A DNA stretch of 63,852 nucleotides, filler included, from Chrysochromulina tobinii (GCA_001275005.1; 9 parts of 9 records of this genome joined end to end with filler, not necessarily neighbours in it), one strand, 5' to 3'; shown: positions 1 to 33,337, counted from the first letter of the whole stretch. Numbers and translations: made by a program. Notes: generated by a model from the sequence alone, not told the origin.

Positions 1-3000
1 CCCCCTTGCCTCCACCACCCTCACCACCTCCACCATCGCCCCCCCGACCGCCCTCGCCTCCAGCCTCGCATGGGCAGGTGCTTGCCACTGCTTGCCACTG
101 CTTGCCTCTGATTGCCTCTGATTGCCTCTGATTGCCTCTGGTTGCCTCTGCTTGCCACTGATTGCCTCTGATTGCCTCTGATGGCCTCTGATGGCCTCTG
201 ATGGCCTCTGATTGCCACTGATTGCCACTGATTGCCACTGATTGCCATCTCAATCTCGGCCTCGCATGGACAGGTGCCGTTCCTTCTCACGGCCACACTC
301 ACACGCCTCCATCGTGCCTTCGCTGGTGCCGCCGCCACCAGCGCCAGCGCCAGCGCCAGCGCCAGCGCCAGCGCCAGCGCCAGCGGTGCGTTCGTCCCCG
401 GCGCTCTGCAGGGCACCAGCAATGCAAGCGCCTTGGCTCAGTACAACCTGACTCGTCGCATCCTCGGCGACCTCGCCGCCTCTGCCGCCGCCGCCAGTCC
501 AGACGTCTTCGCCGCCGCCGACGCCGCCGACCCCATTGAAGTGGATGGCACCGGCGTTCGCGTTCGCGCCGGAACGAGCATGACGGGCGCCGTGACGAGC
601 ACGCCGGGCGCCGTGCCGAGCGCTCTAAGCGCCGTGCCGAGCATGGTGGGCACAGCGGTGGCGTTCGATGGGTTTCGGCGCGGCGTCGCCGATACTTTGG
701 GCCTCAGGCTGCGCCGAGTCGTCAATCGCACTGTGCCCGGCCTTCAACTGGTTGATGTCGGTGCGATCTTGCACACGCCTCACGATGCTCCCCACGGCGC
801 TGCCGCGAATGCTCACCACGGCGCCCCGCCTCTCTCTTCCACACGACTCATGAGGCTCTGCGCTGCATGCGAGTGCTCATCACGGCGCCCGGGCGCTCCT
901 TTCCCGTGCGCGAGCGCTCACCACGGCGCCCTCGCTCCCGCCCACAGGCCCGTTTGGCGCCCCATTTGAACGGGTGCTCGTCCAGATTCGGCTGAGCTTA
1001 TCCGCCGAGGCCCGCACACAAGGCGCCGGTACGGCGCTTGGGGCGGTCGCAGCTTTGGTCGAGGGGTACGCCGGCCGGATCGGTGTGCCAGACTTGGAGC
1101 GGACATTTGTCTCTAATTGCCTCTAATTGCCTCCCTCATTAACGTCTCTGATCGCCTCGAATTGCCTCCCTCATCAGGTGCGGCCGATTTGGAGGCGACA
1201 CTGCAGGCGCACGGGCTTGGGGAGGGAACCGTCCTGATGACGTCACGCATCGTGGACACGGGCGCGATTGCGGACACGTGGCGGATGCATGCAAGCGGGC
1301 AGATGACGCACGCCGCTCCGCCGGTGGGAGGCACCGACGGCGAGATCGGGGCCAGATCGCTGAGCTCGCTCGGGCTCGTCGCCATCGTGATTGCATGCGT
1401 GGTCATCCCCATCCTCGCGCTCGCCTACGCCGACCGCGACCGTCTCCGGCGCCGTCTCGGGCGTCTCGGACGCCTCCTCTTGCCCCCTTCGCTCCTCCCC
1501 CCGTCACTCCTCCCCCCGTCGACGGGCCCCCAGACGCCCACCAAGGCGCCCGCCCGAGACGGCGCCGACGGAATGGGTTCGCCCACGGACCGCTCGAGCC
1601 CTGGGCGCCGTGCCGGGCGCGCGCCGTCGTGGGCCGTGGACGAGCCTGCGGAATGGGAGACGATCGGATCGACGATTGGGTCTGTCTTTAGCCCCGCTCA
1701 GACGCCGAGGCAGAGGGAGAGGCGAAGAGAGGAGCGCGCCGGGATGAGCTCTTTCATGCCAAGCGAGAGGGACCTGACAGCGCGTAGCAGCGCAACGGCC
1801 TCGCAATGCGCCTACTCGCACCGCCACGGCGCCTCGCCACAATCCAAGCCGACATCGCCACAAGCCAAGCCGACATCCCCATCGCTAAGGCCCAAGCCGA
1901 CATCGCCATCGCTAAGGACCAAACCGACATCGCCATCGCCCAAGGCAACGTGCGTACAGTCGGAAGCGCGGCCGCCACGGCCAGCGATGGCGTCGAAGCC
2001 GCCGCCGCAGCAGCAGCCATCGCCAGAGCATCAGCCATCAGTGGCAATCAGAGGCAATCAGTACCATCAGTACCATCAGTACCATCGCCCCCCATCGCCA
2101 GAGCATCAACCTCCACCTCCGCCACCTCCACCTCCACCGCCGCCGCCCCCGCCTCCACCGCCCCCGCCGCCGCCGCCACAGCCGGCCGCCACCGACCTTT
2201 GGCTCACCGCTACGGACGAAACCACCGGCGGCACCTACTACTACAAGCAACACAGCCGACTGGTGCAATGGGAACGGCCGATGGACTTGAACGCCGACCC
2301 GACAGCCGGACCACTACGCGCCGGGCTGAGCGCGCGCCGTACCGGGCACACTGACGGTACGTCCATGGGGCAGGGGCCTGCTGGCTCGTCAGTGGCAATC
2401 AGAGGCAATCAGAGGCAATCAGGGACGTCCATGGGGCAGGGGCCTGCTGGCTCGTCAGTGGCAATCAGAGGCAATCAGTCGCCATCAGAGGCACTCAGAG
2501 GGTCTCAGGGGCCTGCAGATTCGTCAATGGCAATCAGTGGCAATCAGAGGCAATCAGGGACGTCCATGGGGCAGGGGCCTGCAGATTCGTCAGTGGCCCA
2601 ACGGCTTCGACGACCATCGACAGAGGAGCGGCTTGCACTTCTGCGCGCCCGCAGGCGGCCAGCGGGCTCTGCTGAGGATACCCGACTCGAAGGGGGGTCC
2701 GGGGGCAAGCCCCCCGGGGGCAAGCCCCCCGGGGGGAAGCCCCCCCGGGGGGAAGCCCCCCAGGGGGAAGCCCCCCGGGGGGAAGCCCGAGGCCCCGCGC
2801 GATCGCAAGCGTGGCGAGGCGCCACCGACGACGCCGAACACGCGACCGTCACCATCTCAAATCAGCCCAGAGATACCGTCGTACCAAATTAGGGCAGAGG
2901 CACCGTCGTACCAAATTAGGGCAGAGGCGCCATCGTACCAAATTAGGGCACGTGCCTCAGCTGAGCCAGCCACGCCCCTCTGCCCGCGCGCATGCCTCCG

Positions 3001-3658
3001 CTTACTGGACGAAATGGACGTCGATTCGATTGTCATCGGCTGTCGCAATCATGCCGCAATCTCGGCAGGTAAGGCATCGTCGCCGCTGAGGCGTGCGAGC
3101 TCAGGTTCAACGACGGAGGCAACGGCGACGTCGCCTCCGAGATGCTCGACGTCGCCTCCGAGATGCTCGAGGCCGGACTCGACGAAATCGACGGAATCGA
3201 CGGAATCGAGGCCTCCGAGATGCTCGAGATCGGCCGCTGATCTCAGTGGCCATCAGCGGTCCTCAGTGGCCCTCCGTGGTCCTCAGCGGTCCTCCGCGGC
3301 AAGCTCGGCGCCCATCACGGCGCCTAGGCCGCGCTCAAGAGCAGATGCGCCGAGGCCTGAGGGCGGGCGAGGCGTTCCACTTGCAGTACCACTCAGCGCC
3401 CAACACAGCGCGCATCTCATCGGCGCTCTGACCTCCTCGGAGTCGAAGCTCTCGTCGGCTGATGTGCCGCTCGAGAGCGATCGTCGGCCGCCGCGCGGGG
3501 CGGCGACGCCGCTCGAGCGACCGCCGCCGCGGGCACGGCAGCACCACGGGCAGCATTTGCCCCCTCGAGCTCGATTGGGACCGCAATCCCCTCGAGCTCA
3601 ATTGGGAGTGCGAGAGACGGCCGTCGGGGATCTTCACAGCCACGGCCTGGAGGCGTGA
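1..3658 (+). CDS. 5'-partial multi-exon type I membrane protein: Pro-rich ectodomain, one TM helix, Pro-rich cytoplasmic tail with a WW domain
   Basis: Exon 3-77 (PLPPPPSPPP...SHGQ) joins VPFLLT across GT-AG intron 78-273. Intron 1083-1177 joins YAGRIG to AADLEAT. TM: LGLVAIVIACVVIPILALAY. WW-like: LWLTATDETTGGTYYYKQHSRLVQWERP. The GGKPP repeat switches frame in a C7 run near 2740-2746, so the 3' end (2892, 3658 or 3686) is uncertain. An intron near 760-985 is unresolved. Confidence 0.6.
78..273 (+). other. Spliceosomal intron made of a 10-bp satellite (GATTGCCTCT/GATTGCCACT/GATGGCCTCT) with duplicated junction
   Basis: GT...AG, restores frame. GCCTCGCATGG[G/A]CAGGTGC occurs at 63-81 and 259-277. 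Confidence 0.8.
2692..2790 (+). repeat. About 15-bp G-run/AAG/C-run tandem repeat encoding GGKPP
   Basis: About six units of GGGGG(C/G)AAGCCCCCC, each self-complementary. Confidence 0.85.
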
Positions 3659-4220
3659 CGTGCACAGTCACCTTGACGGGACGTGAAACGCATGTATAGA
3701 CGCGTAGGGATCCTAGGGAAAGGATTTTCAGACCGCAAGCGGTCTGAGGCAGTGCTGCTTTTACGATTTTTAGTGTCAAGTCGAGTCGACTAGTTTCTTA
3801 GATAGGCGGGCGCCGCAGATAGCCCAGTGCCCACCAGGAGACCAGGTAGGTTTTTGGAACCGTGCCCGTTCAGGACGATCGGGACGTCCACCGCTACCCG
3901 GTTACCCGGTTACCACGTGAATATACGTGACCGAGTTAAAGGGAGCTCGGAAGCTTAACCGCGTGCACTGGGGCGAGCACGGGCAGAGAGACGGACAGAC
4001 CGAAAGAACTCCTGCTGAATCCCAAAAACCCTAACGGACAAAAACACGCGCCTAGAGAAACGGTCAGACGTTTCAGAGCCGACTAGTGTACATATGAGGC
4101 TCGCTCACTGACGCGTCTTATATGGGGTCATGTAAGGTGTGTGTCTTCTGAGCGGGCAGTTCAAGTGCCGCGTGTGAACGTCAAATTGCCAACCAATCGG
4201 CCGACCGCGAAAGCGCGCCG

Positions 4221-7200
4221 ATGGCGCTCATCCAAGGACTGGGGCAGAGCATCGACCGCTCGCGCTTGATATCCGCGGACGACGCCTACAGGGTTCTTGA
4301 GTTGGACCGCGGTGCTTCACTCCATGCTATCCGAAGGGCGTACCTGCGCCAGATTCTTCGCCATCATCCCGATAAGGCGGGTGCATCAGCAGGAGACCCC
4401 GATGCAGTCACGTCCGCAGCGTCTCGTACGATTCGCATCAATATCGCGTACGAAATGTTGCAGAGCGACAAGATAGCCACGCGCGACAGAAGCCAGGCGG
4501 AGCGCGAGGCCGAGTACCAGGCAGAGATGGATGAAATGGAAGCCGAGCTCAAGAACCTCGACGCGAAAAGAGCGCAGCGCGAGCAAAAGGCCAGGGCGGA
4601 GTTTGCGGCGCGCCAGCAAAACAGGTTGAGCCAGCTCAGCATGGACGTGCGAGAGGCCCAACAGAAGCATAACCACAAGGCGCCGCCGGCGGTGCAGCTC
4701 TACTTCCCGTGCTCCACCAGGACGTTGTTCCTCAGAGTGAGGAATCTCAATAATCCGTCCGATCTGACGTCCAAGCTGCCGTACGTGATCGCGGATAGGC
4801 GCTCCAAGCTGGTGTACCATCCGGCCAAACGAGGTGGCACGTTCGGCCACGTGGTGCCCGAGCCAGCGCCCGCTGAGGAGGCCGCTCGCATCGTGTGGGA
4901 CCATCCGCAAGGTCCTCGTGACGCGTGGTCCTTGGAGATGGCGATCTCCCTTGATGAGGGTGATGACGACCATCGCCCGGCATCGGCGCATGAGCTGCAG
5001 CAGCGCTGCCTGTTCGTGCTGGCCAGCAAGTACGTGTCTGATGGCCACTGATGACCTCTGATAACCTCTCTGATGACCTCTGATGGCCTCTGATGACCTC
5101 TGAAGACCTATGATTACCTATGATGGCCTCCCTCATCAGGTACCCTCACAACTCGGCAATGATTACCCTTGACGGCAATGATTACCCTTGATGACCTATG
5201 ATTACCCTCACATCAGGTACCCTCACAACTCGGCCGTCAAGGGAAAGTTCGTCTGGGCTCCTTGGTACTTGGAGTACCCGGTTTACACACGGCCTCGACG
5301 GCTCGATCTGATGCTCAGCCGCGGTGCGTACGGCTTCTTGATGACCGCTGAACCGCTAGCTGCCATTGATTGCCACTGATAGCTAATGACTGCCATTAAC
5401 TGCCACTGATTGACACTGATTGCGACCGATGGCCACCGACTGGCACAGGCGTCTTCGGCAAGGAGCTCGGGCGGTTACGCGAGGAGGCCGAGGAGCAAGA
5501 GCAGCGAGCAAGGCGGCAGAAGGAGGAGGCGCAACTGTTGGAGAAACTCGAGCGCGAGAAGCAGGTGTACGAGAAGCGGCGCGCCCGTGACCACTGATGA
5601 CCTCCGATGACCACTGATTGCCTTCCTCATCAGGTGTACGAGAAGCGGCGCGCCCGGCTCGCCAGGTGTGCAACGCGCCCGCCGCAACGCGCCCACCGAT
5701 CCCACAGTGCTTCAGCGAGTATACTGATTGCGACTGATTGCGACTGATTGCGGCTGATTGATACTGTTTGCGACTGTTTGCGACTGATGGCCGCGCAGGT
5801 TTGCAAGGCATCAGCCGACGCAGGTTCGTTTCCTCGAGTACACTCCCGTCGGTCGTGGCTCAGTCGATGCGGATGAGACGGTGCGTGCCGCTCAGAAGGC
5901 CGAAGAAGGTCACAGATGACCTCTGATGACCTCTGATGGCCTCCCTCATCAGGTGCGTGCCGCTCAGAAGGCCAAGGCGGAGGCGATGGAGTTGCGGCTG
6001 CGGGAGCTGTGGGAGGCCGGGCAGGACGATGAGGAGCTCGGTAAGGCGCTGGTCCGGGTGCGCTGCGAGCTGTTCCATCGTGTGCAGGTGAGTGCTCCTG
6101 AGTGCCACTGATTGCCACTGATTGCCACTGATGACTTCTGAGGACCTCTGATGACCTCTAATTGGCACTGATTGCCACCACGCGCAGTGCACCGACGCGT
6201 TTTGGGAGCACCCAAAGCTGATGCGCGTCTCCTTCTACGACAAGTTCCTCGACTTGAGCCGTGTACTGAAGGGCAGTGCTCGCCAGGCACTCGCCGAGGC
6301 AGCGTCGGCCAAGAAGCAGAGGGCGCTGCAAGAGAGGCAGCAGCTGCTGGACGCACAGCCGGGCGCGAGAGCCTATGCAAAAGTGGCGATGCGAGCGGCC
6401 GCTCTGGCCATTCCCCTCGTCCAGGTGAACAAGGGCCAACGGGTGGTCGTGGCTGGACTGACCAACGAGATCGGCAAGACCATCAACGGCTCCTTTGCCC
6501 AGGTTATCCGCCCTTCACACCGCCCTTCGCACCGTCCTTCACACCAAGGGGTGACGAATTTGGAAGGCGGAGATGAGACGAGATCGTCGATGGCACTGAT
6601 CGAGCTCGATCCGCCGTCGTCGTTTCAAATCAGCGTGCCGCTCGCGTCGTTATATGATGCCTCCGAGGTCATCCGGATCGCATGTGCAGCAGCGCCGCTC
6701 CCAGCAGCACAGCCTGGGGTGGTCGGCCCCTCGAGTGCGCCCGAGCCGCCGGACGTGATCGATGCGGAGGATCATCAATTCTCATCAAGGCTCGTCAAGG
6801 CTCATCAAGGCTCATCAAGGCTCATCGCCGTGATCGATGTGGAGGATGACCCTTCAGTCGATACCGGCGACCCCAAACCCAAACGGCCACGCACCGAACG
6901 GCTCACGAACCCGGTCCGAAGCGCCGTGGTGGGCGACGACTCGGACGGGTTCGGCTCCAGCCTGGTTGGCTCCAGCGAGGATGAAGAGGCGATCCACTAC
7001 GCCGGCCAGGTGGCCCCGGCGACTTCGCGCCGCGCGAGATGGCTTGCTCGGCGCGAGGTGCGCGAGGCAGCGCTCGCGCTGATGGAGGAGGGGGCGTCCT
7101 CAGACGGTAGTGACGAATCTGACGAATCTGACGAGGTGGAGTGGCTCGAGCCGAGCAGCAAGGTGCTCGAGGCAGCGCTCCTGCGGAAAGGCCAGGGGTC

Positions 7201-9015
7201 GCGGTCGGACGAATCTGACGAATCTGACGAATCTGACGAATCCGACGAATCTGACGAATCTGACGAATCTGGCCACGAGATCATGATCGATGAGAAGGAA
7301 GAACCGGCGCCCGCACTGCCGTCAGGTCTGTTGGCTTCCTCGCCTTCGGCTCCGCCGCGTGCGCCTGTGGGGCCTGCGGAAAGGCATCCCTCAAGCCAGT
7401 CAGCAAGGCAGGCGCCGGCTGCTCCCCTCCTCATTCACCCCTCAAGCCAGCCAGCAAGGCAGGCGCCGGCTGCTCCCCTCCTCATTCACCCCTCAAGCCA
7501 GCCAGCAAGGCAGGCGCCGGCTGCTCCCCTCCCTATTCGCGTCGTCGAACAAGAAGACGACGATGAACACGAGTCGAACTCGGACGACGACACGCCGCTC
7601 TCTGCGCTCATTCCGACCGTCATACACACGTCGGCGAGTCCCTTGGCCCTGTCGGGTCGTGCGCTGCTCGCACTCGCGCTGCTTGACCTCGAGCTCGCTG
7701 TGGGTTGGGCTCAGGTCAGCTGATTGCGACTGATTGCGACTGATTGCGACTGATTGCAACTGATTGCGACTGATTGCGACTGATTGCGACTGATTGCGAC
7801 TGATTGCGACTGATTGGGCTCAGGTCAGCGCCTCGTGGAACTACAAGCAGAAGGCCTGGCGCCTCCGCGTTGAGGCGCACGCCCACCCCACGCGCCGTGC
7901 TGAGCGCTCCACATCGAGGGAGCTCCAGATGGAGCGCCGTGTTGAGCTCCCGATCGATCCGCTCGAGTCGCTGCGCGAGTTGGCGATCATGCTGTGCGGC
8001 GCCATCAAGCCCAGGGCCCTCGCGGTGGCCTCGAGCTGGTTCAAGATCGACGAATGGCGTGCATCCGTTGCAGCGGCGTCCAATTTCCCGGCTCTGCATG
8101 AACTGGTCTCGGCGCTCAAATGTGCGCTGATCGGCGAGGACGAGCCACCAGCGAGGTTGCAAGCTGGGGACGAGCCACCAGCGAGATTGCAAGCTGGGGA
8201 CGAGCCACCAGCGAGATTGCAAGCTGGGGACGAGCCACCAGCGAGATTGCAAGCTGAGGACGAGCCACCAGCGAGATTGCAAGCTGAGGACGAGCCACCT
8301 TCCGCACCTGTCTCAATCAAGGGTGCGAACGGCGGCGTCGGCACGCTGCTGACGCGCTCACCACGGCGCCAGCAACCGCATCGCGCCACAGTGAAGACGG
8401 AGCCCAGTGTGAAGACTGAGCTCGATATTGTGAAGACGGAGCCCGATACTGTGAAGACTGAGCTGAAAGACTATGTGAAGCCTGAGCCAATCGTGAAGAC
8501 TGAGGCCACTGTGAAGACCGAGGCTGCACACCTGAGCCTCGAGGTCGAGCGCGATTACCGAGTTAAGCTCCGAGCCCGAGCTCAAGGCCGAGCTCAAGGC
8601 CGAGGGTCGACGGACGATCAGATGGACGAAACCCCGTCGCACTCGGACGACGCACTCACGGGCGCGGCGCTTAACTGGGCACGCCAACAGCTGAGCGTCG
8701 GGCAGTGCGTGCGCGCGCGCTTCCGGGCGACCACGCTCGGTCCGGCGAATGCTTTTTGGTTCTCGGGCGCTATCCGGTACGTGCTGATGAAGCTCACATC
8801 TGATGACCTCTGATGACCTCTGTGATCTGATGACATCTCATGATCTCTGATGATCTCTGATGACCTCTGGTGACCTCTGATGACGTATGATGACGAGCAC
8901 CATCAGGTACGTGCACGTGGACGGGACGGTTGATGTCGACTACGACGATGGCGACCTCGAGGAACGAGTCAAGCCCGAGTTTGTGCGGCCATGGGCAGGA
9001 AGCTCGTCAGCGTAG
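4221..9015 (+). CDS. Multi-exon protein with an N-terminal DnaJ (J) domain, low-complexity middle and C-terminal Tudor-like domain
   Basis: J domain with HPD (DAYRVLELDRGASLHAIRRAYLRQILRHHPDK). Introns 5030-5216, 5324-5448, 5565-5633, 5666-5798, 5881-5952, 6088-6187, 7715-7823 and 8777-8906 give one continuous frame. It ends with VGQCVRARF...WFSGAIRYVHVDGTVDVDYDDGDLEERV and TAG at 9013-9015. Confidence 0.75.
7715..7823 (+). other. Intron consisting of near-pure (TGATTGCGAC)9 between a 16-nt direct repeat
   Basis: TTGGGCTCAGGTCAGC at 7705-7720 and 7814-7829; splicing at CAG|GT restores WAQ-VSASW. Confidence 0.85.
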
Positions 9016-9122
9016 AGCGCCCGTAAATAATTGAAATTTGTGTGACTTAGACGTCGTAGTTTTTTTATGTCATCCGTCCTCGTGATTCCGAAGCCTCTCC
9101 CAAAGGCTCACTACCATGCTCA

Positions 9123-10283
9123 CTACGGATCCGTCGACTTAAAGTGGTCGTCGTCGATGGTGCTGTACATTTCGCCGACGTCGACGAGCCCCTGCACGAT
9201 GGAGCGCACCTGCGCCTCCTGCACGCCATTCGAGGCAAGCGCCTGGGCCGCCTCGAGCACCGTGCACCCCGCGTTGCTTGCGGCACCCTTGCTCTGGAAG
9301 AATTTGAGCACGAGGTCCTTTGCTTTCACCCCCAAAGGTCCCTCGATGGCTCGGAGCTCTGACTCTAGAGATGACTTTGCTGCGGCCGCCGCAGCTGCCG
9401 CGGCCTCGTAGGCCTCGTATGCCGCAGCGGCAGCCCTGGAGGCGCTCTCGTAGGTCGAGTGGGCCCTATTCAGGCTGAGAGCGGGTTGATGTTGTGAGGC
9501 CGCCTCGTCGTGCGCGCGCTGCTTGCGCCGGTCGAGTTCCGCCGCATCTATCTCATCGGCCGCGTACGCGGAAAAGTGTGGCTGTAGGAGAGCGCGATAC
9601 GCCGCGTCAACTTGTGGCTGCATCAGCGAGTGCGCCTTCGCCACGCGCGTGGTGAGGTCTGCGGCGTCGTCGGCCGCACGCACGCGTTGCGGAGGCGTGG
9701 TGACAGCGTCATCGTCCAGATCTATCGCGCGCTTGCGTCCTGCCGCGTCCCGTTGTTCACGCGTTCGCACACTGACCACCTCTACTTCCGCCTCCTCATC
9801 TCGCGCGTCCAGCAACTTGAGTGAGCCACCAATGATGAGTTTGAGGTTTATCTTTGAGTCTGTGAAGGGCACATGAGTCCCGAAGCAGGAGGCAGCGAAG
9901 GCGAAGCGCGAGGCGGAGAATGTCACAAGCAGGTGTGCCTCTGGGATCTTGGAAGCCGCAGACAACTCTGCTTTGCACGAGGACAGTTGAAAGACATTAT
10001 ATGGGATGATTGCCGAGCCGTACTCACCCCACACCACAAGTACCCCATTTAGACACCACCTCAGGTGAAGATGAATTGTAGCGTGCTGATGAATACCAAT
10101 GCTGGCAAGTGTCGCATCAAGATTGTCGCATATCTGTTTGCCATGATATACTATGCGCTGGATTGCTGGCCGAATTCCATTTCCTTTGTCCTGGATCTTG
10201 CATTTGAGCGAGTACAATGTTTCGCGAGGATCAACGTCACATGCCACCGTGCGACCGCAGTCCAGTCTCAAAAAGATCTGCAT
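9123..10283 (-). CDS. Ubiquitin-like domain fused to an RPA32-type C-terminal winged-helix domain
   Basis: N-terminus MQIFLRLDCGRTVACDVDPRETLYSLKCKIQDKG...QRIVYHGKQI...ATIHLHLR is ubiquitin-like. C-terminus VRSIVQGLVDVGEMYSTIDDDHFKST resembles the RPA2 C-terminal motif. Confidence 0.7.
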   Translation of the reverse strand: MQIFLRLDCGRTVACDVDPRETLYSLKCKIQDKGNGIRPAIQRIVYHGKQICDNLDATLASIGIHQHATIHLHLRWCLNGVLVVWGEYGSAIIPYNVFQLSSCKAELSAASKIPEAHLLVTFSASRFAFAASCFGTHVPFTDSKINLKLIIGGSLKLLDARDEEAEVEVVSVRTREQRDAAGRKRAIDLDDDAVTTPPQRVRAADDAADLTTRVAKAHSLMQPQVDAAYRALLQPHFSAYAADEIDAAELDRRKQRAHDEAASQHQPALSLNRAHSTYESASRAAAAAYEAYEAAAAAAAAAKSSLESELRAIEGPLGVKAKDLVLKFFQSKGAASNAGCTVLEAAQALASNGVQEAQVRSIVQGLVDVGEMYSTIDDDHFKSTDP

Positions 10284-10566
10284 GATCGCACGCGTCGAAA
10301 TGAAATTTTCCGGCCGCAAGATCGTTCACACACGAAACGGCCGGTCGTTCACGTGACCCGAGCCACTACGCGATCCAGAATCGATCTTCGCTCGTTTTTA
10401 CTGTAAGTAACACGGGTTCTTACGATCGTCCACACGGGTACCCGCGGTACTTCACACATTTCACCGTTCTAGGCGGGGCGCATCATAGCGCAGTCCATAC
10501 GATACAAATAGGTCGATACTCTCTTCCACGTCAGTTTAAGGTCACGCAAACGCGCCGTAAGGACAT

Positions 10567-13500
10567 ATGAGCCCCCCTCAGAAATTCCGCAAAGCTGTGG
10601 CTCGTGCCACGACGATTACCATGCGCGCTCTCCGCCGCCTCCCAGTAGGCCGCCTTCCAGTAGCGGCGGGCAGCTCGCGAGGGTTGTCGACCAAGCGCCA
10701 GTCGATCAACATCACCACGACCGGGCCGCGCACACTTTACGACAAGATCTGGGATGACCACGTCGTCACAGGGAAATCGGACGGCCAGGCCTTGATCTAC
10801 ATCGACCGCCACCTGGTGCACGAGGTGACGTCGCCGCAGGCCTTCGAGGGCCTCGCGGTAGCCAACCGGCCGGTGCGTCGCCCCGACTGCACGCTCGTGA
10901 CCGTCGACCACAACGTGCCCACCTTCTCGCGCAAAAAGTTCACCACGGTCGAGGAGTTTATCAAGGACGACCAGAGTCGGCAGCAGGTCAAGGCCCTGGA
11001 GCAGAACGTGCAAAAGTTCAACCTGCCATACTTTGGGATGGCGGACAAGCGACAGGGCATCGTGCACATCATCGGCCCTGAGCAGGGCTTCACTGTACCG
11101 GGATCCACGTGCGTCTGCGGCGATTCCCACACGGCGACGCACGGCGCCTTCGGCGCGCTCGCGTTCGGCATCGGCACGTCGGAGGTGGAGCACGTGCTGG
11201 CGACGTCGACGCTGAACCAGAAGAAGGCGCTCAACATGCTCGTCCAGGTCGACGGCGATCTTCTTCCGGGCGTCACGTCGAAGGACATCGTGCTGCACAT
11301 CTGCGGCGTCATCGGCACCGCCGGCGGCACAGGTGCGTCGATCGAGGTTGCCTCTGATGGGGCTCGAATGGCCTCTGATGACCGCTTGATTGCCTCCCTC
11401 GTCACCGCTGGCGGCGCAGGCGCGATGATCGAGGTTGCCTCTGATGGGGCTCGGATGGCCTCTGATGACCGCATGATTGCCTCCCTCATCAGGCGCGACG
11501 ATCGAGTTTGCGGGGTCGGCGATCCGCTCACTCTCGATGGAGGCACGCATGACGATCTCGAATATGGCCATCGAGGCTGGAGCGCGTGCGGGGCTGATTG
11601 CGCCCGATGAAGTCACATTTGCATACCTCAAGGGGCGTCCGATGGTGCCCGCCACGAGCGAGCCCGAATGGGAACAGGCCGTGGCGTACTGGCGTAGCCT
11701 CGCGACGGACAAGGGCGCCAAGTTCGACAAGGAGGTGTACATCGACGCCGCGGATATCGCGCCGACGGTGACGTGGGGCACCTCCCCGGAGCACACCGCA
11801 CCGATCACTGGCGTCGTGCCAGACCCCACCGACGAAGCTGATCCTGCGCGCCGCGCGGCGTACGAGCGTGCACTCAAGTGCGTGATGACCTGTGGATGAC
11901 CTCTGATGACCTCTGATGACCTGTGCTGACCTGTGCTGACCTGTGCTGATGACCCTCTGGCGACCTTCTGATGACCCTCCAATGACTCTCTAATGACCCT
12001 CTGATGACCTTCTGATGACCCTCTAATGACCCTCTGATGGCTACCGTCGCTCTCTGCATGCAGGTACATGGGATTGACGAACCACGTCAAGAAGCCGCTC
12101 GCGGAGGTACCTGTGGATAAGGTGTTCATCGGCTCGTGTACCAACGGACGCATTGAAGACATCCGCGCCGTCGCGTCCGTCGCCAAGGGTCGCAAGGTGC
12201 ATCCGAACATCAAGGAGGCGCTGGTGGTCCCTGGCTCGGGTCTCGTCAAGGAGCAAGCAGAGGAGGAGGTGAGTGATGTCCTGAGGAGTGCGGCTGATTG
12301 CCCACGATTACGTGAGGGTGCGACCAATGTTCACACCGATTGCTGTGCGCGCATATTGGCTTCCACACTGACTGCTGTGCGCGCGCAGGGCCTCGACACG
12401 ATCCTAATCGAGGCGGGCTTCAAGTGGCGCGAGCCGGGCTGCTCTATGTGCCTTGCCATGAACGCGGACAAGCTCGGGGAGTATGAGAGATGCGCGTCCA
12501 CCTCGAACCGCAACTTTGAAGGCCGCCAGGGAGCTAACGGTCGAACACACCTATGCTCGCCGGTGATGGCTGCGGCGGCTGCGGTCACGGGCATGCTGAC
12601 GGACGTTCGCAAAATGGCGCTCTCGCACATCCCGACGCCGGTACGTGAATGGCCTGTGATGGCCTGTGATGGCGTGTGATTGCCTGTGAGGGCCTGTAAT
12701 GGCGTCTGAAGGCGTCTGAAGGCGTCTGATGGCGTCTGATGGCGTCTGATGGCGTCTGATGGCGTCTGATGGCGTCTGATGGCGTCTGATTTCGTCTGTT
12801 GGGTCTGATGGCGTCTGGTTGCGTCTGCATGCAGGGTGTGGATGGGATGGCGCATTCCGAGGTGATTGCCGCGGACTGGCGCGGCGCGGTCGGGTCAGCC
12901 GGGCCGGTGATCCGCGATCTCGATGTGGCCTCGGGAGGTGCGGGCATGCCCAAATTTGGCAACCTGAAGGGCGTGGCCGCGCCCCTCGACATCCAAAACG
13001 TGGACACGGACATGATCATACCGAAGGAGTACTTGAAGACCATTAAGAAGACGGGGCTCGGCTTCGCCGCGTTCGCCGAGCTCCGGTATGAGCTTATTCC
13101 GCCCTCTTGCGCCAGATTGGGTCTGATGGCGCCTGATGGCGACTGATGGCGACTGATGGCGCCTGATTGCGCCTGATTGGCTCTCGGCTTCGCCGCGTTC
13201 GCCGAGCTCCGGTGTGACAACCCTGTTCGAGGTGGCCCACACCCTGCAAACAAGCGCTCACCTCGACGCCCTCGCTCCCCACAGGTACACGAACCCAGTG
13301 CAGGTTGCGCAGGCGGGCACTCCCGATGGGGTCGCGATCGAGGTCGCGGACTTTGTGCTCAATCGGCCCGAGTACCGCGAGCGCTCGGGGCGCGATGGAG
13401 TCGGCACCAAGATCCTTGTGGCGGGCGACAACTTTGGGTGCGGCTCGTCGCGCGAGCACGCGCCGTGGTCGATCTCGGGCATGGGGATCCGCGCCATCAT

Positions 13501-13972
13501 CTCGACCTCGTTTGCGGACATCTTCCACTCAAACTGCATGAAGAATGGCATGCTGCCGGTCACGCTGCCGCGCGAGCAGGTGCTCGAGCTGCTCAAGGAC
13601 GCGGGAGATCTCAAGGAGATCGAGATCGACCTCGCGAGCCAGAGCGTCATCCGGGAGTGCGGCACCAAGTACATCTTCGACATCGATCCATTCCGCAAGA
13701 ATTGCCTGCTGAATGGCCTCGATGACATCGGGCTCACCATGCAGCAGATGGACGCGATTCGCCGATTCGAAGCGGCGCGCTCGGAGCTGTACCCCTGGCT
13801 CGACGGCGCCACGACGCGCGTGCCGCGCCTGTTCGCGATGAGCGCCGAGAATATGCCCGAGAATACCCCGAGCCACAATCTCAACACTCCGACGCCCGAT
13901 GAGTGGAGAGAAGAGGTGCGCGCGCGCCGCGCCGCGAAGCAGGCGGGCGGCCAGCGCCAGGCCGCGCAGTAA
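10567..13972 (+). CDS. LEU1: 3-isopropylmalate dehydratase, fused large (LeuC) and small (LeuD) subunits, with probable N-terminal targeting peptide
   Basis: Motifs [66 protein letters not shown], then [10 protein letters not shown] and [13 protein letters not shown]. Introns 11333-11492, 11878-12063, 12269-12388, 12641-12834 and 13086-13284. The start may be ATG 10621. Confidence 0.95.
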
Positions 13973-16143: not shown

Positions 16144-16389
16144 GGGAACGGGACGTAAGTACAGTGTGGAATCCTATTGACGAAATCTGAATGCGGACCG
16201 TGAACGGAACGACGATGATTCCAAAAGAGAAAGGGGAAACTGGAACGTCAAAAACGAAGCGTCGACGGGACACCTCACGGGATCAAGCGCCAAGGGCGTC
16301 AAGGCGTCAACACTTTCTTCTACCACGCTCCTCCACTGCGACAACGCCCGTAGCCTCCACGTAGCCTCCACGTAGCCTCCGCGGAACCA

Positions 16390-19300: not shown

Positions 19301-19683
19301 TCCAGCCCTTTGCCCCTCGCCTCCGCCGCCTCCGCCGCCGCTCGCTCCGCCCCGATGAACCTCGCGTAGGACAAGGCCGCCTCCTCCGGCGTTGCGAACA
19401 TGCCGAGGTAGCGCTTCTTACCATTGTCCTGGATCCGTACCTCATACTTGCCACATACATGCTTGGTTACGCTCTTGAAGCCCGTCTCGCCGCTTGTCGA
19501 CGGCACCAGCTCGAGTCCCTCGGCCGCCGCGGCCGCCCTGGCCTCGTCCGGCAGCATCTCGCTTGACCCAGCGCTGCTCAACCCATAATGAATGTGGCGT
19601 GCAAGGGCCGGTGGCTCGTCGATACGAGGACGGCCGCTCCCGCCGGTGCCGCTGTCAGACAGAACCTTGAGTTTGCGCTGCTG
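16390..19683 (-). CDS. Tandem AP2-like domain array (10 units of about 86 aa) with a C-terminal RING finger; probably 5'-partial
   Basis: Repeated EARAAAAAEGLELVPSSS.ETGFKGV-x14-20-LGMFATPEEAALCYAR matches the AP2/ERF pattern (GV...LG.F.T.EEAA.AY). RING-like CVIC...CCGNYYHKRC...CPTC. The frame is open to the contig edge. Confidence 0.85.
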   Translation of the reverse strand, partial: QQRKLKVLSDSGTGGSGRPRIDEPPALARHIHYGLSSAGSSEMLPDEARAAAAAEGLELVPSTSGETGFKSVTKHVCGKYEVRIQDNGKKRYLGMFATPEEAALSYARFIGAERAAAEAAEARGKGLEPLTADEARVAAAAEGLELAMSTSNETGFKGVYKRDGKYTTEAWENGKLVYLGRFRTPEEAALCYARHIRTKRAAAEARGAEPQLGPQPPTADEARAATAAARAAAAAEGLELVPSTSAESGFKGVSKHGGKYKARKGRHLGMFATPEEAALSYARHIGAKRAAAEAAEARGEGLEPLTADEARAAAAAEGLELVPSSSSETGFRGVYNTGGKYRVGFDDNGKTRHLGIFATPEEAALCYARHVGAERAAAEAAGERGKGPQPLTANEARAAAAAVRAAAAAEGLELVPSSSNQTGFRGVSKNHDKYRAELKSSGKRYHLGMFATPEEAALSYARHIGAERAAAEAVEARGKGLDLLTANEARAAAAAEGLELVPSSSSETGFKGVYKSRAKYEASFNDTRKKRFLGMFATPEEAALCYARYIGAERAAAEAAEAEVAVSKPLTADEARAAAAAEGLELVPSTSSGTGFKGVHKHVGKKYQAQFCENCKVHHLGSFATPEEAALCYARHIGAERAAPAAAEAEVAVSKPLTADEARAAAAAEGLELVPSSSCASGFKGVVKNRGGYKVQSCENRKQRHLGMFATPEEAALCYARFIGAERAAAEAAEARGKGPQPLTANEARAAAAAEGLELVPSSSSETGFKSVYKSGAKYEASFNDTRKKRYLGMFATPEEAALCYARHIGAERAAAEAAEARGEKRQPLTADEARAAAAAEELELVPSSSNETGFKGVRKLGGKYYANMMENSVLRYLGCFATPEEASLARARYIRDLVDGWLIPGRRPPHRPVLKAPAPAPDPAPPSPFPSEVELAEALRCWRLLLTAMRDDQRSQQGSSSSSALPPPSPAATTMHASRKRPAVAVAFAEVGVPRAEALQPQLTAKSGDDPGAARCVICLEALNLSAASASSRGEAACGHTPCCGNYYHKRCLSQWLQGSGQSGSPLPIEKKCPTCRRDLVARALIPRASPFVLQK

Positions 19684-24160: not shown

Positions 24161-27134
24161 TCACCACCAATGCCAGGCTGCGCCGCCGCCGCGGGCCCGA
24201 TAGCTGCGGAGCGCCGTGATGAGCGCACCCACGGAGCGCCGTGATGAGCGGAGCGCCGTGATGAGCGCACCCGCGGCGGCTACCACGCCGCCGATGACGG
24301 CGAGAGTCGCGAACCACCTGACGAGTGGCGCCGTGGTGGGCGTGGTCGGGCGGAGGAGGGGCTTGCTCTGCTCGGCCCCGGCTGGTGCCCTCGCAGGCGT
24401 CGTGGTGGGAAGCGCCGTGGTAAGCAGCGCCGTGATGGGCAGCGCCGTGGTAGGCAGCACTGTGGAGCGTGGCGCCGTGGTGGGCGGCGCTGTGCGTGCC
24501 CCTTGTTTGGATTGCATGCGCCTCGCTTTGTTGGCATCGCGACGAGCCTTGCGTCGCGACATAGCGCCTTCCACAACCACGCCCGACACAGCGCGATTCA
24601 CAGCCACGCCCTGTTCTGCAGCCCCATCTGGCTCCACAGCGCCCCCGGGTTCCACAGCCGTGCCCGGTTCCACAGCCGTGCCCGGTTCCACAGCGCCCCC
24701 CGGTTCCACAGCCGTGCCTGGTTCCACAGCGAGCGCCTCGAGCAATTCAAACTTGGCAATAAAGAAGCCCTCGTGCCCATCACGTGGCTCGAAGCGCTGC
24801 ACGAGCGCACACTGCTCCACCATCAGTCCGCACCCGAGTCGATCAGACGCACTCAGCCGCACTCAGAAGCATTCAGACGCACTCAGACGCACTCAGACGC
24901 ACTCAGACGCACTCAGACGCACTCAGGCGCACTCGGGCGCACTCGGGCGCACGCAGGCGCACGCAGGCGAACGGCACCTGCTCCGCCGTCAATCCGCACC
25001 CGAGACGACCGCACGCTCCTAGCCGCGGCTCCGCGGGCAGCAGCCGGAGCGCGGGGAACTGCGTGAGAGCCCACGCGACCTGCATGCAATGAGGGAGGCA
25101 ATCAGAGGCTCATTAGTGCTCATCAGGGGAACTGCGCGAGAGCCCACGCGACCTGCATGCAATGAGGGAGGCAATCAGAGGCTCATTAGTGCTCATCAGG
25201 GGAACTGCGCGAGAGCCCACGCGACCTGTGCGAGCCATCAGGCGTCATCAGGCGTAATCAGTGCGAGCCATCAGGCGTCATCAGGCGTAATCAGTGCGAG
25301 CCATCAGGCGTCATCAGGCGTAATCAGAACGGAGGCTATCGTCATCAGAGGCCATCAGAGGCCCTCAGAGGGCCCTCAGAGGGCACTCAGAGGGCACTCA
25401 CCTGTGCCTCGTTTTCGGCGGGTGTGATCGTGCACGTCGAGTACACCAGCACGCCGCCCGCACGGAGCATGCGAACCGCACTCCATAGAAAAGCTCGCTG
25501 GTACTGCACAGCCCACTTCATCTCCGTCGCACACGCCGTCTGCACGATGCGGGGGCGCAGACCGAGCGCCGAGCAGGGCGGGTCGAGCAACACGCAGTCG
25601 AAGGAGGCCGGAGGCTCCGCGAGGGCAGGCACGCCCGACACGGCGTTTGAGCTCGAGACGGCGTTTGAGCTCAAGACGGCGCCGACGCCCGAGACGGCGC
25701 GGGTGCCCGAGACGGCGCGGGTGCGCGAGAGCGCCGCAATCGCCGTCGTGTCCGCGCGTACGCATTCAACACGCTGACGAAACAGTCACGCATGCATTCA
25801 GAGGCCATCAGAGGCAATTAATGGCACTCAGTGGCACTCCGTGGCACAGTGGCACTCCCGGCGCACATGCAGCCCGAAGGTGACGCGCAGAAGTTCGTGC
25901 ATCTTGGCCAACTTGGCGTGATTACGCTCGCATGCCACGAGCCGACTGCCGGGTGCGTCGCGTAAAAAGTTGCATGCAATGTGGCCCGCCTTGCTTCCGG
26001 GCGCCGCACACATGTCGAGCACGCGCTGTCCCGGGCGCGCCCCGAGCACGTGGGCCACGACCAGGCTCGGCAGCGCCTGCATGCAATGAGGGAGGCAATC
26101 AGGGAGTGAGCCACGACCAGGCTCGGCAGCGCCTGCATGACACACGTGCCGTCAAATCCGGACTCCACAAGAGGTCAACAGAGGTCATCAGAGGTCATCA
26201 GAGGTCATCAGAGGTCATCAGAGGTCATCAGAGGCCATCAGAGGTCATCAGTGGCCGTCAGTGGCCGTCAGAGGTCATCAGAGGCCGTCAGAGGTCTTCA
26301 GAGGCCATCAGACTGTGTCGGCCACGCCTCCGTCCATTGCGATTGCGGCCCTCTGTGCACCGCACCCGACTGCGACCCCGCTCGCACCTGCACGTAGCAT
26401 AAGCCCTCGAGGCAGGAGACGTCGCGCAGCGCGGGAAGGTCGCCTCCCAGGACGTGGCGCATACGCACGCCCAGCCCGCTCGCGAGCTTGAAGAGCGCAC
26501 TCCGATCGATCAGGCACTCACCCACACCGACGAAACGCGCCGTACCGAGCGACTCGCACGCCGAGCCCCGCGTGAGCCGCCCGGTAACGTCGACGTAGAC
26601 CGAGACGAAATCTCCAGCCGCGAGGCCCATCGAGGCGGCCCGGATGCCCTTGACGAAGATGTCGGCGCCCTTGAGGATCGCCTCGCCACAGATCCGGTCG
26701 ACGAAGACCTCGTGCGGCGGCAGACCCCGCCGTTTGCGCTCAATGAAGCGCTGTGGCGAGGTCACGCCGAGCGCGTTGAGCACAACGTACGGAGCCAGCT
26801 CGGGCGCGCTCGCTCGGCGCTGGATGGCGATGACGTCAGAGAGCCGTGGGTGGCACGTGATGGCATAGCCTTGCAGGCGCTCGTGCGCCAAGAGCAGCGC
26901 TAGCAGCTCCTCGCGCGAGCAGCGCTGCAGGTTGACGCGCACGTGCAGCGCGCTCGGCGGCGTGGCGAGCTCCTCTTCGAGCACAGTGATCTCGTCCTCC
27001 GTGTAGCAGGGCTTCAACAGTGCGCGCACTTCGGGGCTGAAGGCCGTCGCGTCCACCGGCCCCGCGCTAGTCGTCGCACCCCAGTCCATTTCTGCTCCGT
27101 GAACGCTCTCGACGACGCGTTTTGCGGAAACCAT
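24161..27134 (-). CDS. NSUN6: NSUN6-like RNA cytosine-C5 methyltransferase (PUA plus RsmB/NOP2 domain) with a low-complexity, hydrophobic C-terminal extension
   Basis: VFVDRICGEAILKGADIFVKGI (PUA), VLDMCAAPGSK, FDCVLLDPPCSALGLRP, LVYSTCTITPAENEAQVAWAL, GFFIAKF. Introns 26077-26387, 25774-25866, 25080-25401 and 24812-24977. Confidence 0.85.
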
Positions 27135-29376: not shown

Positions 29377-29982
29377 ATTTCTTCTGGGCGGCGATTGGCA
29401 TGCGTGAGCCCATCAGCGCAATCAGTGCAATCAGCGCAATCATCAACGCAATCCTGAGTGAGCTCCGAGCGTTACGGGCTGTCTCGATACTCGGAACGGG
29501 ATCGGTAGGCGGGCACCTCGAGGCCGTTCTTGTGCACACGTAGTCGTGCGTAATCATGATTCATGTGGTCGCATGCCGAGGCACGGGCGGGTCCTGTGTT
29601 GCCATGCCTCGCCCGCGCGGAGAGAGAGAGAGAGAGAGAGGTGCATGAGGCTTGAGGAGCCGCGAGGACGAGTGAGGTCATGTAAATGATGTGCCGAGCC
29701 GAGCGGACCCGAGGTGCGAGAAGCGAGGGCGAAGTGTCTGGCCGTCTGTGACACGAATCCGAGGACACGAATGTCTAGGGGTTCGCCGGACATCGAACAT
29801 CGCTAAGTTTCTTGTTTTCGCGATTTCCTCTGTATAGTGTGCAGTGTGTACCGGACTGAGCGGCAGAGAGAAATTTACGTTTCGCGGGAGGTTGCGCAGG
29901 AGGGAGGAGCGCCGTCGCGGCGCGTCGGTTTGAATTTGGGTTGTGGCACTTTTTCGTCACCCGGGTCCAAGTTGATGAACTC

Positions 29983-30391: not shown

Positions 30392-30424
<33 letters not shown>

Positions 30425-32092
30425 CGCGCATGCGTCGAGCCCTCCGTAGCGAGCTTACCCGTCCGTCCATTCACAGCGAGCTGGCCCGTGTCCCTCTCTG
30501 ACGAAACTCTCGTGCGTCCGTTCGCAGCGAGCTGGTCCGTGCCGCAAACGCGGGTGATCGCGGCGGCGCTTGGCAGGAGGGCACTGTGGCACTCGAGGTG
30601 TGAACAGTCGCCCGGCTTGAGGGCTTGGCAGCAGGTGAGAGCTGCGGTGCCCTTGAAGCGCTGTAACGGCAACTTGTGGTGAGATAGCATCTGGCGCACA
30701 TACCTGAGGCCATCAGGGGCCATCCGAGGCCATCAGAGGCCATCAGAGGCCATCATCAGAATGAGATCACGCGAGGTCGCATCTCGGGCGCACGTACCAC
30801 TCTCCGTTGAGCGACATCGTGTTGAGCACATCCCCCTGGCGCAGCTGATAGTCGATCTGGATCACTCTCCCATCGAGGATCGCGTCCCACCTGATGAGGC
30901 ACGCAATCAGACGTCATCAGAGGTCATCATAGGTCATCGAGGATGGCGTCCCACCTGATGAGGCACGCAATCAGACGTCATCAGACGTCATCAGAGGTCA
31001 TCAGAGGTCATCGAGGATGGCGTCCCACCTGATGAGGCACGCAATCAGACGTCATCAGACGTCATCAGAGGTCATCAGAGGTCATCAGAGGTCATCGATG
31101 ATGGCGTCCCACCGACGCAGGAAGAGCTCCGCAGCTGACCGGTTGAGCACTGCGTGACGGTCGTTGATGCCGTTGTAGAAATCGGAGCCTGGCGTGAGAG
31201 CGACGGTGAGAGAGTCATCAATGGCTATCAGACGCGCTCACAGACGCACTCAGAGCCGCAATCACACCTTCTGGGATAGCGACCGCCCGAGGGTCAAAGA
31301 GGCTGATGGGCGGGTGCGGTGCATGCCACTGGAGGTCGAGGCGCGTCGAGACGACGTGGGTATACCTGATGAGGCACGCAATCAGAGGTCATCAGAGGTC
31401 ATCAGAGGTCATCAGAGGTCGAGGCACGTCGAGACGACGTGGGTATACCGAAGGCCGCTGGCGCGCTCGGCGGCAGCAAGCACGTCCAGGCTCGCCGACA
31501 CGTCGCGCAGCACGATCAGGTTGTGCCCGTAGCTCGACGGGTTCGTCGCGAACACGGGCGACAGGTACGATCCCCAGACGTTTGTGCACCGGTACGGCGA
31601 GCGCCTCTTGTCGCGCCACACGTCGACGCGCGTGCACACCTTCGGATGGATGTTCTTGTTTCCTGGCTCGCGCAGCCCGCTGTTGAACGCGCGCACAATC
31701 CGCGGCCAGTGCGGCAGCGCCTCGAGCATCGTGACAAGCTCCTCAAGCGTCGGCGACGGCTCCAAGCGCAGCCGGCGGATGGTGCCGAGGAGCTTCGGCA
31801 ACGAACGGCGCACGGTCCGCAGGCACACACTCGCGAGCGGGCCGTTCAGGTCCACGGACTCGGCGAGCGGCGCTTGCGATGCCGCTTCGTCCGCGCGAGA
31901 GTTGGTGGGGCAATCGCCGGCGCCCTCGTACCGAAGCGCGAGAAGGAGGTCGGCGTTGCCCAGTGGCCCAAGCAAATGCCGTCGAATGCTCGCACCGCCG
32001 TCCTGCACGCCACCCTTCATCGTGCCGATCCATCCGCCGATGCAGACGCCGACGCGCGCAGGCGGCACGGCGGCGACGGAGCTTTCGGCCAT
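29983..32092 (-). CDS. Multi-exon protein with a glycosyltransferase-like motif (YTHVVSTRLDL...PHPP...IPEG.D..GINDRHAVL.R)
   Basis: Introns 31366-31448, 31189-31267, 30891-31112 and 30704-30797 give a continuous frame. The function is inferred only. Confidence 0.6.
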
Positions 32093-32374
32093 CACGGCGC
32101 GCCGCGTCGGGCGCCCGATCTTCTCGAAGATGAGGACCAGAGGGCCCCTCGCCTCGCCTCGCCGATTCGTTGGCCAGCTAGCATCTAATGTATTCCACAC
32201 GGACAGGGTGCATCACTGAGGACCTCCACACGCGCGACCCGAGGCGTTCGAAAGGCGTTCGTGTTCAACCCCGCCAAGGTGTAACCACACACGCGCAGTC
32301 CTAAACGTCAAACTCAATTTCACGCGCGTCGCATCTCGTCACATCTCGTCAGCTGCCCCCTCAATTTGTTGCGC

Positions 32375-33337
32375 TCAATCCGACGCGCCTTTGCTGACGA
32401 TGGCCATCGCGGCGCGCTCCCACACGGCCGCGCACGCCTCAAGCGCAGAGCGCTCACCGAGCATCACCCGCGCCGCCAGCCGCGCTCGCTCCGCCTCGGG
32501 AGAGTTCCGGGAAGCTTCCATCGAGGTTTCGTCAGAGGTTTCGTCAGACGTGGGCGCGGCGAGCGGCGCGAGCTCGATCGCGGGCGGCAGAGCCTCGAGC
32601 GCGGCGCCCACGGCGGCGCGCACCTGCAATCAGACGCAATCAGACGCAATCAGGCGCAATCAGGCGCAATCAGGCGCAATCAGACGCAATCAGACGCAAT
32701 CAGACGCAATCGCACCTGCTCGGCCACTCGCGCCTCGACCGCCGCCCCGATGGGCCTCTGCAGCTTTTCCCACAGCGCATTCGGATCCGCCTTCCATTCC
32801 TGGAGCGCCGTCGCGAGCGCCGCCACGTCGGGCTCGAGGCCTTCCAAATTAGGTTGCAGCTGGGCGAGGCGAAGCAGCGGCGCCATTTGCATGCACTGCA
32901 CCGATGACGAAACTCGAGCTCGAGCTTGGTGAGTCCCAAATTAGGATGGGAGGCCATCGGGCGCAATCAGGCGCCATCCGGGGCAATCAGGAGCACTCAG
33001 CGGACCTGCTCCTTGACTGGCTTGAGATCGATCCACAATCAGACGCAATCAGAAGCAATCAGACGCAATCAGACGCAATCAGACGCAATCACACCTGCTC
33101 CTTGACTGGCTTGAGATCGATCCACGTGCCCTCCGAAGCGCCTTCGTGAGCGCCGAGCGCGACGAGCAGCGCGCGCTTCTGAGCGCTCAAGGGGTCCTCG
33201 GGCGCCACTCCGGCGAAGAAGATCGGGCGGCCGCCGCTCGCGAGCCACTGCTTGTGATCCTGGCCCGGCACGAAGCCATACGTGTAGAGCATCTCCCACG
33301 AGGAACGCCAGCCAGACTCGCCGTAATCGATGAACAC
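32375..33337 (-). CDS. 5'-partial SET-domain protein of the Rubisco LSMT family (C-terminal part)
   Basis: VFIDYGESGWRSSWEMLYTYGFVP, QKRALL, PLLRLAQL, RLAARVMLGERSAL. Introns 32624-32715 and 32896-33094, plus a truncated satellite intron at 33338-33561. Confidence 0.7.

Follow-up and report, generated by a model that had tools for sequence, protein, structure and literature searches.

The window analysed here, a stretch of 63,852 nucleotides (nt), filler included, from the haptophyte Chrysochromulina tobinii (GCA_001275005.1), consists of nine contigs joined by linkers, and six of its genes carry inserts in which a 10-base satellite is enclosed between direct repeats of exon sequence. The feature is real, lies well above chance and recurs in other assemblies and in a second haptophyte lineage. 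Patches of this kind appear to persist as introns when they lie forwards and as in-frame protein inserts when they lie backwards, which would be an ongoing route of intron gain. As their source we favour, with somewhat more conviction than doubt, templated insertion into staggered breaks, primed by microhomology, with the same gene as the main donor and with selection then retaining the inserts that splice out exactly or keep the frame intact. The direct repeats had been pointed out in an initial annotation of the same DNA, some claims of which are revised below.

All statistics are drawn from introns and segments of this window, whose GC content of about 63.6% agrees with the 63.4% given for Chrysochromulina tobin (PMC4580454). 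Thirty introns were called in eight genes, with 26 complete introns in the six genes of the finding, namely A, J (possessing a DnaJ domain), LEU1, an NSUN6-like gene, G and S. Under predicted splicing, excision of whole introns leaves open frames in all six, and the aligned junctions agree with homologs in LEU1 (five junctions, 51 homologs), the NSUN6-like gene (four junctions, 3 homologs) and gene G (four junctions, 2 homologs, two of these junctions with just one homolog); the earlier statement that splicing restores the coding sequence exactly therefore stands. The LEU1 matches are headed by haptophytes (Chrysochromulina MMETSP0287, Prymnesium parvum and Emiliania), and a quick LEU1 tree, built after rows with GC ≤ 0.55 or shorter than 150 aa had been excluded and used just for placement among prymnesiophyte haptophytes, sets the window inside a 12-row clade with haptophytes.

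The initial annotation listed ten direct repeats at exon junctions, and all ten are present, eight of them perfect and two with one mismatch (Table 1). Further cases, some decayed, lie at 1082/1177, 5134/5211, 5663/5796, 11330/11490, 25228/25082, 25008/24842, 31113/30891 and 30798/30704; three antisense exonic cases and the same-gene donors described below likewise go beyond it, and both bear on the mechanism. A copy of the intron's own ±40-nt exon flank was detected at a score of at least 12 inside 13 of 30 introns, as opposed to 2 of 870 non-self pairings, a null that rules out the repeats as a chance product of the AG|GT consensus. Among LEU1 introns of other algae (doubtful calls and duplicates having been removed before the count of 51), such a copy occurs in 1 of 43 distinct introns when the locus L005 is excluded (Fisher p 1.4e-5), so direct target repeats flank the inserts above both backgrounds. 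Three further introns of the window carry junction-anchored repeats of 9-16 nt. Own-flank copies were found in 12 of 24 satellite introns and 1 of 6 non-satellite introns, which does not amount to an enrichment (p 0.20). The two copies of a duplication differ by 0 to 4 mismatches, a spread that repeated events would produce. Separately, a tandem duplication of 60 nt spans the 3' splice site of a non-satellite intron in an EF-hand gene (51908-52020, plus strand); it covers 37 nt of intron and 16 nt of exon with 3 mismatches and forms a stacked GT..AG unit with hardly any cargo.

The satellite itself is strand-locked in introns, where CTGAK occurs 158 times in intron sense and 0 times reversed. 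At least two CTGAK units are present in 24 of the 30 introns, and the consensus CTGAKKRCSN fits 134 of 175 10-mers starting with CTGA. CTGAT agrees with the CURAY branch-point consensus. Sense arrays are poor in AG and are interrupted by stops in most frames. Genes A, J and LEU1 have a 14-nt tail in common; CCTCCCTCATCAG is such a tail and ends exactly at AG. A CTGAGT variant, one change from the donor GTGAGT, lies near intron 5' ends at 6088, 24977 and 25401, and the branch-point-like CTGAT lies toward 3' ends, such that one repeat family covers both splice signals. More satellite arrays, without evident flanking duplication, were observed outside the called gene models at 3236-3300 and 29407-29442. 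Rfam gave 0 matches in window 1-34000, and folding of six units gave no common structure, with one of the six below a z of -2 and just short CTGAT/ATCAG pairing.

All units are built as target, cargo and target, and four layouts can be distinguished. In layout (a), the target opens with G|GT and the cargo tail, such as CCTCCCTCATCAG, supplies the acceptor; in layout (b), AG lies within or at the end of the target and the cargo is tail-less; in layout (c), the unit adjoins another intron, either behind or ahead of it; and in layout (d), reversed cargo sits in a predicted exon. Cargo measures about 20-180 nt, with longest common substrings of 9-35 nt and shared suffixes of up to 26 nt. About half of the units, plus all three reversed ones, end within the satellite and have no tail. 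These layouts bear on three proposals of the initial annotation. A variable-length target duplication (9-35 nt) with non-identical satellite cargo was confirmed. Duplication of CAG|GT as the origin of both splice sites holds in five of the ten listed cases (63, 5562, 7705, 32719 and 33004) and fails in the rest: at 5880, 8776 and 31332 the duplication holds just G|GT, the acceptor A being supplied by the insert tail, and at 26054/26110 it holds CAG|GC. Nor is each unit a new intron, as three of the ten (13057, 26054 and 33004) instead abut a second, ordinary intron. The second copy at 13183 sits inside one 199-nt LEU1 intron and is not an acceptor; its use as a working donor was ruled out by a stop at codon 640, and 13086-13284 must therefore splice as a single intron.

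Insertion occurs in either orientation, as demonstrated by three reversed, target-duplicated, in-frame inserts in predicted exons of genes A and J. Their spacings of 75, 66 and 75 nt are all multiples of three. They contain 0 stops in gene sense and, when flipped, stops in all three frames. Layout (d) should be the residue expected of orientation-blind insertion filtered by selection. In the protein P0125, a gene G homolog, a 29-residue insert (residues about 448-480) lies between copies of a five-residue motif; such an insert is what would be expected at the protein level if another alga translated through a target-duplicated intron in frame.

The cargo resembles satellite from the same gene. 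In a donor test on 33 satellite segments in the six genes, with target copies trimmed by hand, shared 12-mers amounted to 0.090 within a gene (88 pairs), 0.018 between different genes of the same contig (126 pairs) and 0.032 between contigs (314 pairs); the permutation p for same-gene similarity was 0.0002, and at most 0.013 with any one gene omitted. Among pairs with a common suffix of at least 15 nt, 4 of 5 were same-gene (expected 0.167, p 0.003). When 3' junctions were searched against the whole window, 11 of 20 units had matches of at least 18 nt, 9 of the 11 in their own gene and some of them reciprocal, and the own-gene matches extended 1-6 nt into the target. Gene S provides the clearest donor case: a 46-nt stretch at the 5' junction of 33094, 6 nt of it exonic, recurs with one mismatch at that of 32715. 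The donor test thus favours a local source of cargo over a dispersed one. At distances of 2-4 kb, similarity was 0.128 within a gene (14 pairs) and 0.019 across genes (26 pairs); similarity that tracks gene bounds and not distance, on these few pairs, hints at a transcript template.

Orthologous loci were collected by one metagenome scan with a LEU1 motif, which yielded 97 loci. Three of these are of the same species: L024 (99.995% identical, window 1295-19683), L063 (99.9%, 1295-19477) and L076 (99.9%, 1430-12775); the site 63/259 and contigs 2-3 lie outside them. They reproduce all units covered, the reversed insert at 2017..2108 included, and L063 and L076 do so with substitutions of their own. 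They differ in a handful of substitutions, in one satellite unit and, in L076, by an additional exonic unit of 135 nt. The initial annotation had proposed a search for empty sites, and one was found at the LEU1 intron of codon 255, phase 1 (255:1): the five closer intron-bearing orthologs displayed (L086, L065, L054, L005 and L075) all have a single target copy and no intron, the nearest being L086, which is 87.7% identical and covers codons 143-308. The same search yielded no empty allele in the three near-identical assemblies. Among the LEU1 loci compared, introns at 255:1, 383:2, 536:0 and 619:2 occur in none outside the three same-species loci, and the 452:0 intron is common to the distant L064 alone; judged from these alignments, intron positions turn over between lineages. 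The gene G site at 31448 is read through by both homologous proteins. The insertions may be recent within the species.

The second lineage is represented by L005, an Emiliania-like locus whose first exon matches the E. huxleyi protein P0014 in 279 of 299 residues. Two of its eight LEU1 introns have exon-start duplications of 27 and 26 nt, one stacked twice behind a GC donor; they are filled with different repeats of roughly 11 nt, and their positions occur in no other locus. (Two L005 introns were re-bounded by hand, and one stop remains at codon 452 of the spliced frame.) The layout is thus not tied to the 10-base satellite or to one species. In L054, L065 and L086, which stand for another haptophyte lineage, the LEU1 introns 288:1 and 711:0 have in common a third satellite, of about 10-13 nt, without long duplications. 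Beyond LEU1, four pattern scans of viral contigs returned 0, 0, 4 and 0 loci, the 4 being short intergenic repeats in phages, and genome contigs returned 0 loci for the tail pattern and 47 for the satellite pattern, nearly all of them short prokaryotic repeats. Two contigs in bacterial metagenome-assembled genome records, L118 and L139, apparently stray pieces of a haptophyte genome, carry both the satellite and the intron tail; the tailed intron of L139 lacks a long duplication. Phage and bacterial records L145, L146, L148, L107 and L117 contain short intergenic runs of the satellite's 10-mers, likely unrelated iteron-like repeats.

Under the templated-insertion reading, two nicks 9-35 nt apart would open the target; one end would prime via a few matching bases on a satellite-bearing intron, copy roughly 20-180 nt and rejoin; and fill-in would then duplicate the target. 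Since the sense satellite, an array of branch-point-like CTGAY motifs, seldom offers an open frame and holds few AGs, an exonic insert in sense orientation would persist just when spliced out exactly, whether by a target GT with the AG of the copied tail, by an AG|GT in the target, or by abutting an existing intron. A reversed insert, being stop-free, would persist just in frame. New introns could act as donors in turn, slippage would stack units, and existing splice sites would be favoured as landing places because CAG|G or CAG|GT is common with donor junctions. The template could be either DNA or the gene's own transcript. One elaboration, offered tentatively and as less likely than not, is that a break in a transcribed gene is repaired on its own pre-mRNA carrying a selfish branch-point satellite, each gene thereby seeding introns and in-frame inserts, and that the same process operates with other satellites in Emiliania; if true, it would explain the 10-11 bp intronic repeats of that genus.

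Several observations weigh against templated insertion from the same gene as a route of recent gain. The reversed inserts are judged exonic from their open frames and from a single sub-threshold WW match that lies downstream of the first of them; no homolog spans these inserts, and the gene J protein search gave one weak match short of the insert. At a 12-nt suffix cut-off, same-gene pairs fall to 4 of 9 (p 0.048), a weaker result that reflects the 14-nt tail common to genes A, J and LEU1, and two gene G 5' junctions have their best match in the NSUN6-like gene. The sample comprises 33 segments from six genes, with cargo bounds set manually, and same-gene similarity could also have arisen afterwards, through gene conversion between the satellites within a gene. 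As for gain, L024, L063 and L076 (99.9-100% identical) hold 0 empty alleles, the gain at 255:1 is dated just coarsely by an empty ortholog at 88% identity, and the four LEU1 introns without exon-start duplication are likewise absent from the same orthologs. The alignment with the homolog P0124 breaks off within two codons of the gene G 31112 intron, hinting that the position could be older. In 5 of 6 cases at existing introns, the end of the duplicated piece lies within 2-7 nt of the splice junction, a closer fit than random nicks would lead one to expect.

Some of these points would be accommodated if old introns had been remodelled in place, by one-sided recombination with spliced cDNA or by tandem duplication across a splice site, with no gain at all. 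Both single layouts amount to one spliced junction plus part of an intron, the duplicated pieces end near splice junctions, and pure tandem duplications over splice sites do occur (87 nt in LEU1, 60 nt at 51908-52020); the divergence of P0124 at the 31112 site and the lack of an empty allele in same-species assemblies point the same way. We nevertheless regard remodelling as unlikely, because three reversed target-duplicated inserts stand where no intron is, neither LEU1 255:1 nor gene G 31448 holds an intron in orthologs, and the tails of added units are unlike the adjacent intron and identical over 26 nt to a unit about 1 kb off in the same gene. Slightly less probable again is the genome-wide insertion of a non-autonomous retro-element or excised intron RNA by target-primed reverse transcription (TPRT), its 3' end serving as acceptor, its 5' end truncated and its target-site duplications (TSDs) of LINE type. 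Such an element would account for duplications varying from 9 to 35 nt, for 5' starts that vary within the satellite, and for a conserved tail, CCTCCCTCATCAG, with AG as its exact end, found in genes A, J and LEU1 as well as in the unrelated contig L139. It fits poorly with the tail-less ends inside the satellite seen in about half of the units and in each of the three reversed ones, with the lack of poly(A), with donors biased to the same gene, with the L139 tailed intron that has no long duplication, and with the unrelated cargo in L005. That the repeats are short-read assembly artefacts around satellites is very improbable: the assembly is fragmented, and contigs 2, 3 and site 63/259 have no second assembly, yet all junctions covered by L024, L063 and L076 are reproduced there, with private substitutions in L063 and L076, the copies of many repeat pairs are set apart by 1-4 substitutions, open frames are regained for most units, and the layout recurs in another haptophyte.

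Table 1. Target-duplicated satellite units of the window, with layouts as in the text and matches of the repeats listed in the initial annotation.
Feature	Span	Strand	Layout	Repeat and match	Description
Gene A intron 78-273	63..277	+	b	63/259, 18/19	19-nt duplication (63-81/259-277) with CAG|GT, 177 nt satellite; target gives both splice sites
Gene A intron 1083-1177	1082..1194	+	a, decayed		18-nt duplication, 4 mismatches; target donor, tail acceptor CCTCCCTCATCAG
Gene A reversed satellite, 58 nt	2017..2108	+	d		perfect 17-nt target copies 2017/2092, spacing 75 nt; predicted exon
Gene A reversed satellite and target	2359..2597	+	d		66-nt (2359/2425) and 135-nt in-frame units; predicted exon
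Gene J satellite intron 5030-5139 and directly adjoining added unit 5140-5216	5030..5234	+	c, behind (5140)		24-nt repeat 5134-5157/5211-5234
Gene J intron 5565-5633	5562..5656	+	a, CAG also shared	5562/5631, 26/26	perfect 26-nt duplication; 43-nt cargo with acceptor tail
Gene J intron 5881-5952	5880..5973	+	a	5880/5952, 22/22	perfect 22-nt duplication supplies GT; last 19 nt of cargo in common with intron 5030-5139
Gene J reversed satellite variant, 56 nt	6754..6847	+	d		19-nt target copies 6754/6829, 1 mismatch, spacing 75 nt; predicted exon
Gene J intron 7715-7823	7705..7829	+	b	7705/7814, 16/16	perfect 16-nt duplication with CAG|GT; CTGATTGCGA cargo, best match at both junctions is gene J intron 5666-5798
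Gene J intron 8777-8906	8776..8914	+	a	8776/8906, 9/9	9-nt duplication; cargo gives acceptor
LEU1 intron 11333-11492 (codon 255, phase 1)	11330..11511	+	a, decayed		decayed target duplication, tail acceptor; later 87-nt tandem duplication
LEU1 intron 13086-13284	13057..13284	+	c, ahead (13086)	13057/13183, 31/31	upstream exon-end copy and satellite, ahead of ordinary intron
NSUN6-like intron 24977-24812	24812..25008	-	b, decayed		decayed 31-nt upstream exon-end copy gives acceptor
NSUN6-like intron 25401-25080	25053..25401	-	c, behind (25225)		satellite intron and two 73-nt added units, each exon-start copy, satellite and tail
NSUN6-like intron 26387-26077	26050..26387	-	c, behind (26132)	26054/26110, 30/30	ordinary intron and 56-nt added unit (CAG|GC); 26-nt tail in common with units at 25152
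Gene G intron 30797-30704	30693..30798	-	a, decayed		decayed exon-start duplication
Gene G intron 31112-30891	30871..31113	-	a		three stacked units of exon-start copy, satellite and tail
Gene G intron 31448-31366	31332..31449	-	a	31332/31415, 34/35	35-nt duplication, 1 mismatch; target end overlaps satellite unit by 6 nt; 21-nt tail in common with intron 31112
Gene S intron 32715-32624	32619..32719	-	b	32719-32711/32627-32619, 9/9	9-nt duplication with CAG|GT
Gene S intron 33094-32896	32896..33125	-	c, ahead (33094)	33004/33093, 33/33	added unit 33094-33006, perfect 33-nt exon-end copy, ahead of ordinary intron

Elsewhere in the window, the minus strand carries at 60310-62082 a Ty1/copia-like fragment, judged by eye to span reverse transcriptase and RNase H, from which reverse transcriptase activity in the genome might derive, and at 17089-19550 an array of about 9 copies of a 258-bp coding repeat, putatively AP2-type DNA-binding units. 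A dynein heavy-chain-like fragment recognised by eye (33662-36944, minus strand) shows apparent frameshifts as well as a tandem duplication of 12 nt near 36079-36102 and is a candidate pseudogene or assembly error.

The source of most new introns is unknown, and the donors of published repair-born introns can seldom be traced. For roughly half of the satellite introns, in two lineages of haptophytes, the sequence itself reveals target duplication, donor, overlap at the junction and non-intron survivors, and break-repair and own-transcript models of intron gain thereby become testable genome-wide on existing assemblies. Introner screens by sequence similarity would miss such introns. For annotation, splice junctions are ambiguous in genes with duplicated targets, and reversed satellite inserts add low-complexity peptides to proteins, as far as the predicted exons go.

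A search of mostly open-access literature found no description of the target-cargo-target layout in haptophytes. Introners form families of similar elements with class-specific TSDs of 3-9 bp and often terminal inverted repeats (TIRs) (PMC9860276, PMC12130899, bioRxiv 10.1101/2020.10.14.339549), and a Chrysochromulina sp. family with 4-bp TSDs has been described (PMC9860276). As in Introners, including Polarella classes 4/5, splice sites here derive from target duplication, insert or both, either orientation is possible, and a position is absent from orthologs (LEU1 255:1, in five of five displayed, the nearest at 88% and hence coarsely dated). The initial annotation set these inserts apart from classical Introners, and tests of TSD length, family similarity and TIRs all bore this out. 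The duplications are variable (9-35 nt, as opposed to 3-9 bp), donors are biased to the same gene, cargo units of about 20-180 nt differ from one another and do not form a family similar from end to end, and, unlike in many Introner families as described, there are no TIRs but just short CTGAT/ATCAG pairing. The non-LTR (non-long terminal repeat) pattern of TPRT, with variable TSDs, a conserved 3' end and 5' truncation, fits the tailed units and not the tail-less or reversed ones.

Emiliania huxleyi reportedly contains 10-11 bp strand-biased intronic repeats, which Read et al. are said to have taken in 2013 as a possible aid to splicing. These repeats resemble the present satellite in period, strand bias and intron location, and L005 has 11-nt intronic repeats. 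The Emiliania repeats are not known to have been linked to target duplications or intron gain.

Two other routes of gain (PMC3443670) overlap in part with these inserts. Tandem genomic duplication of AG|GT is matched in 5 of the 10 listed cases, where a duplicated CAG|GT provides both splice sites; the inserts depart from it by a foreign satellite body in all 10 and by an acceptor that is sometimes supplied by the cargo. Intron transposition by reverse splicing or template switching of reverse transcriptase would likewise produce intron-like inserts, often at existing positions and possibly from the gene's own transcript, whereas the present copies are partial, are flanked by long target duplications and are in some cases reversed. 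In Daphnia, introns have been gained through staggered breaks with direct repeats (PMC3443670, PMC4202315), and templated insertions at 3' overhangs are known (PMC7407515). As described there, the Daphnia introns similarly hold filler between direct target repeats, with repeated staggered breaks stacking the repeats and spliceable inserts being selected. The Daphnia filler comes mostly from unidentified sources (mitochondrial or rRNA in single cases), whereas the filler here is a branch-point-like satellite, mostly traceable to introns of the same gene; the repeats here also reach 35 nt, and reversed in-frame survivors occur in predicted exons. The closest known kind is thus break-repair intron gain as in Daphnia, and what appears to be new, on a gain so far dated coarsely, is a repair-linked route whose donors would be traceable and would lie mostly in the same gene.

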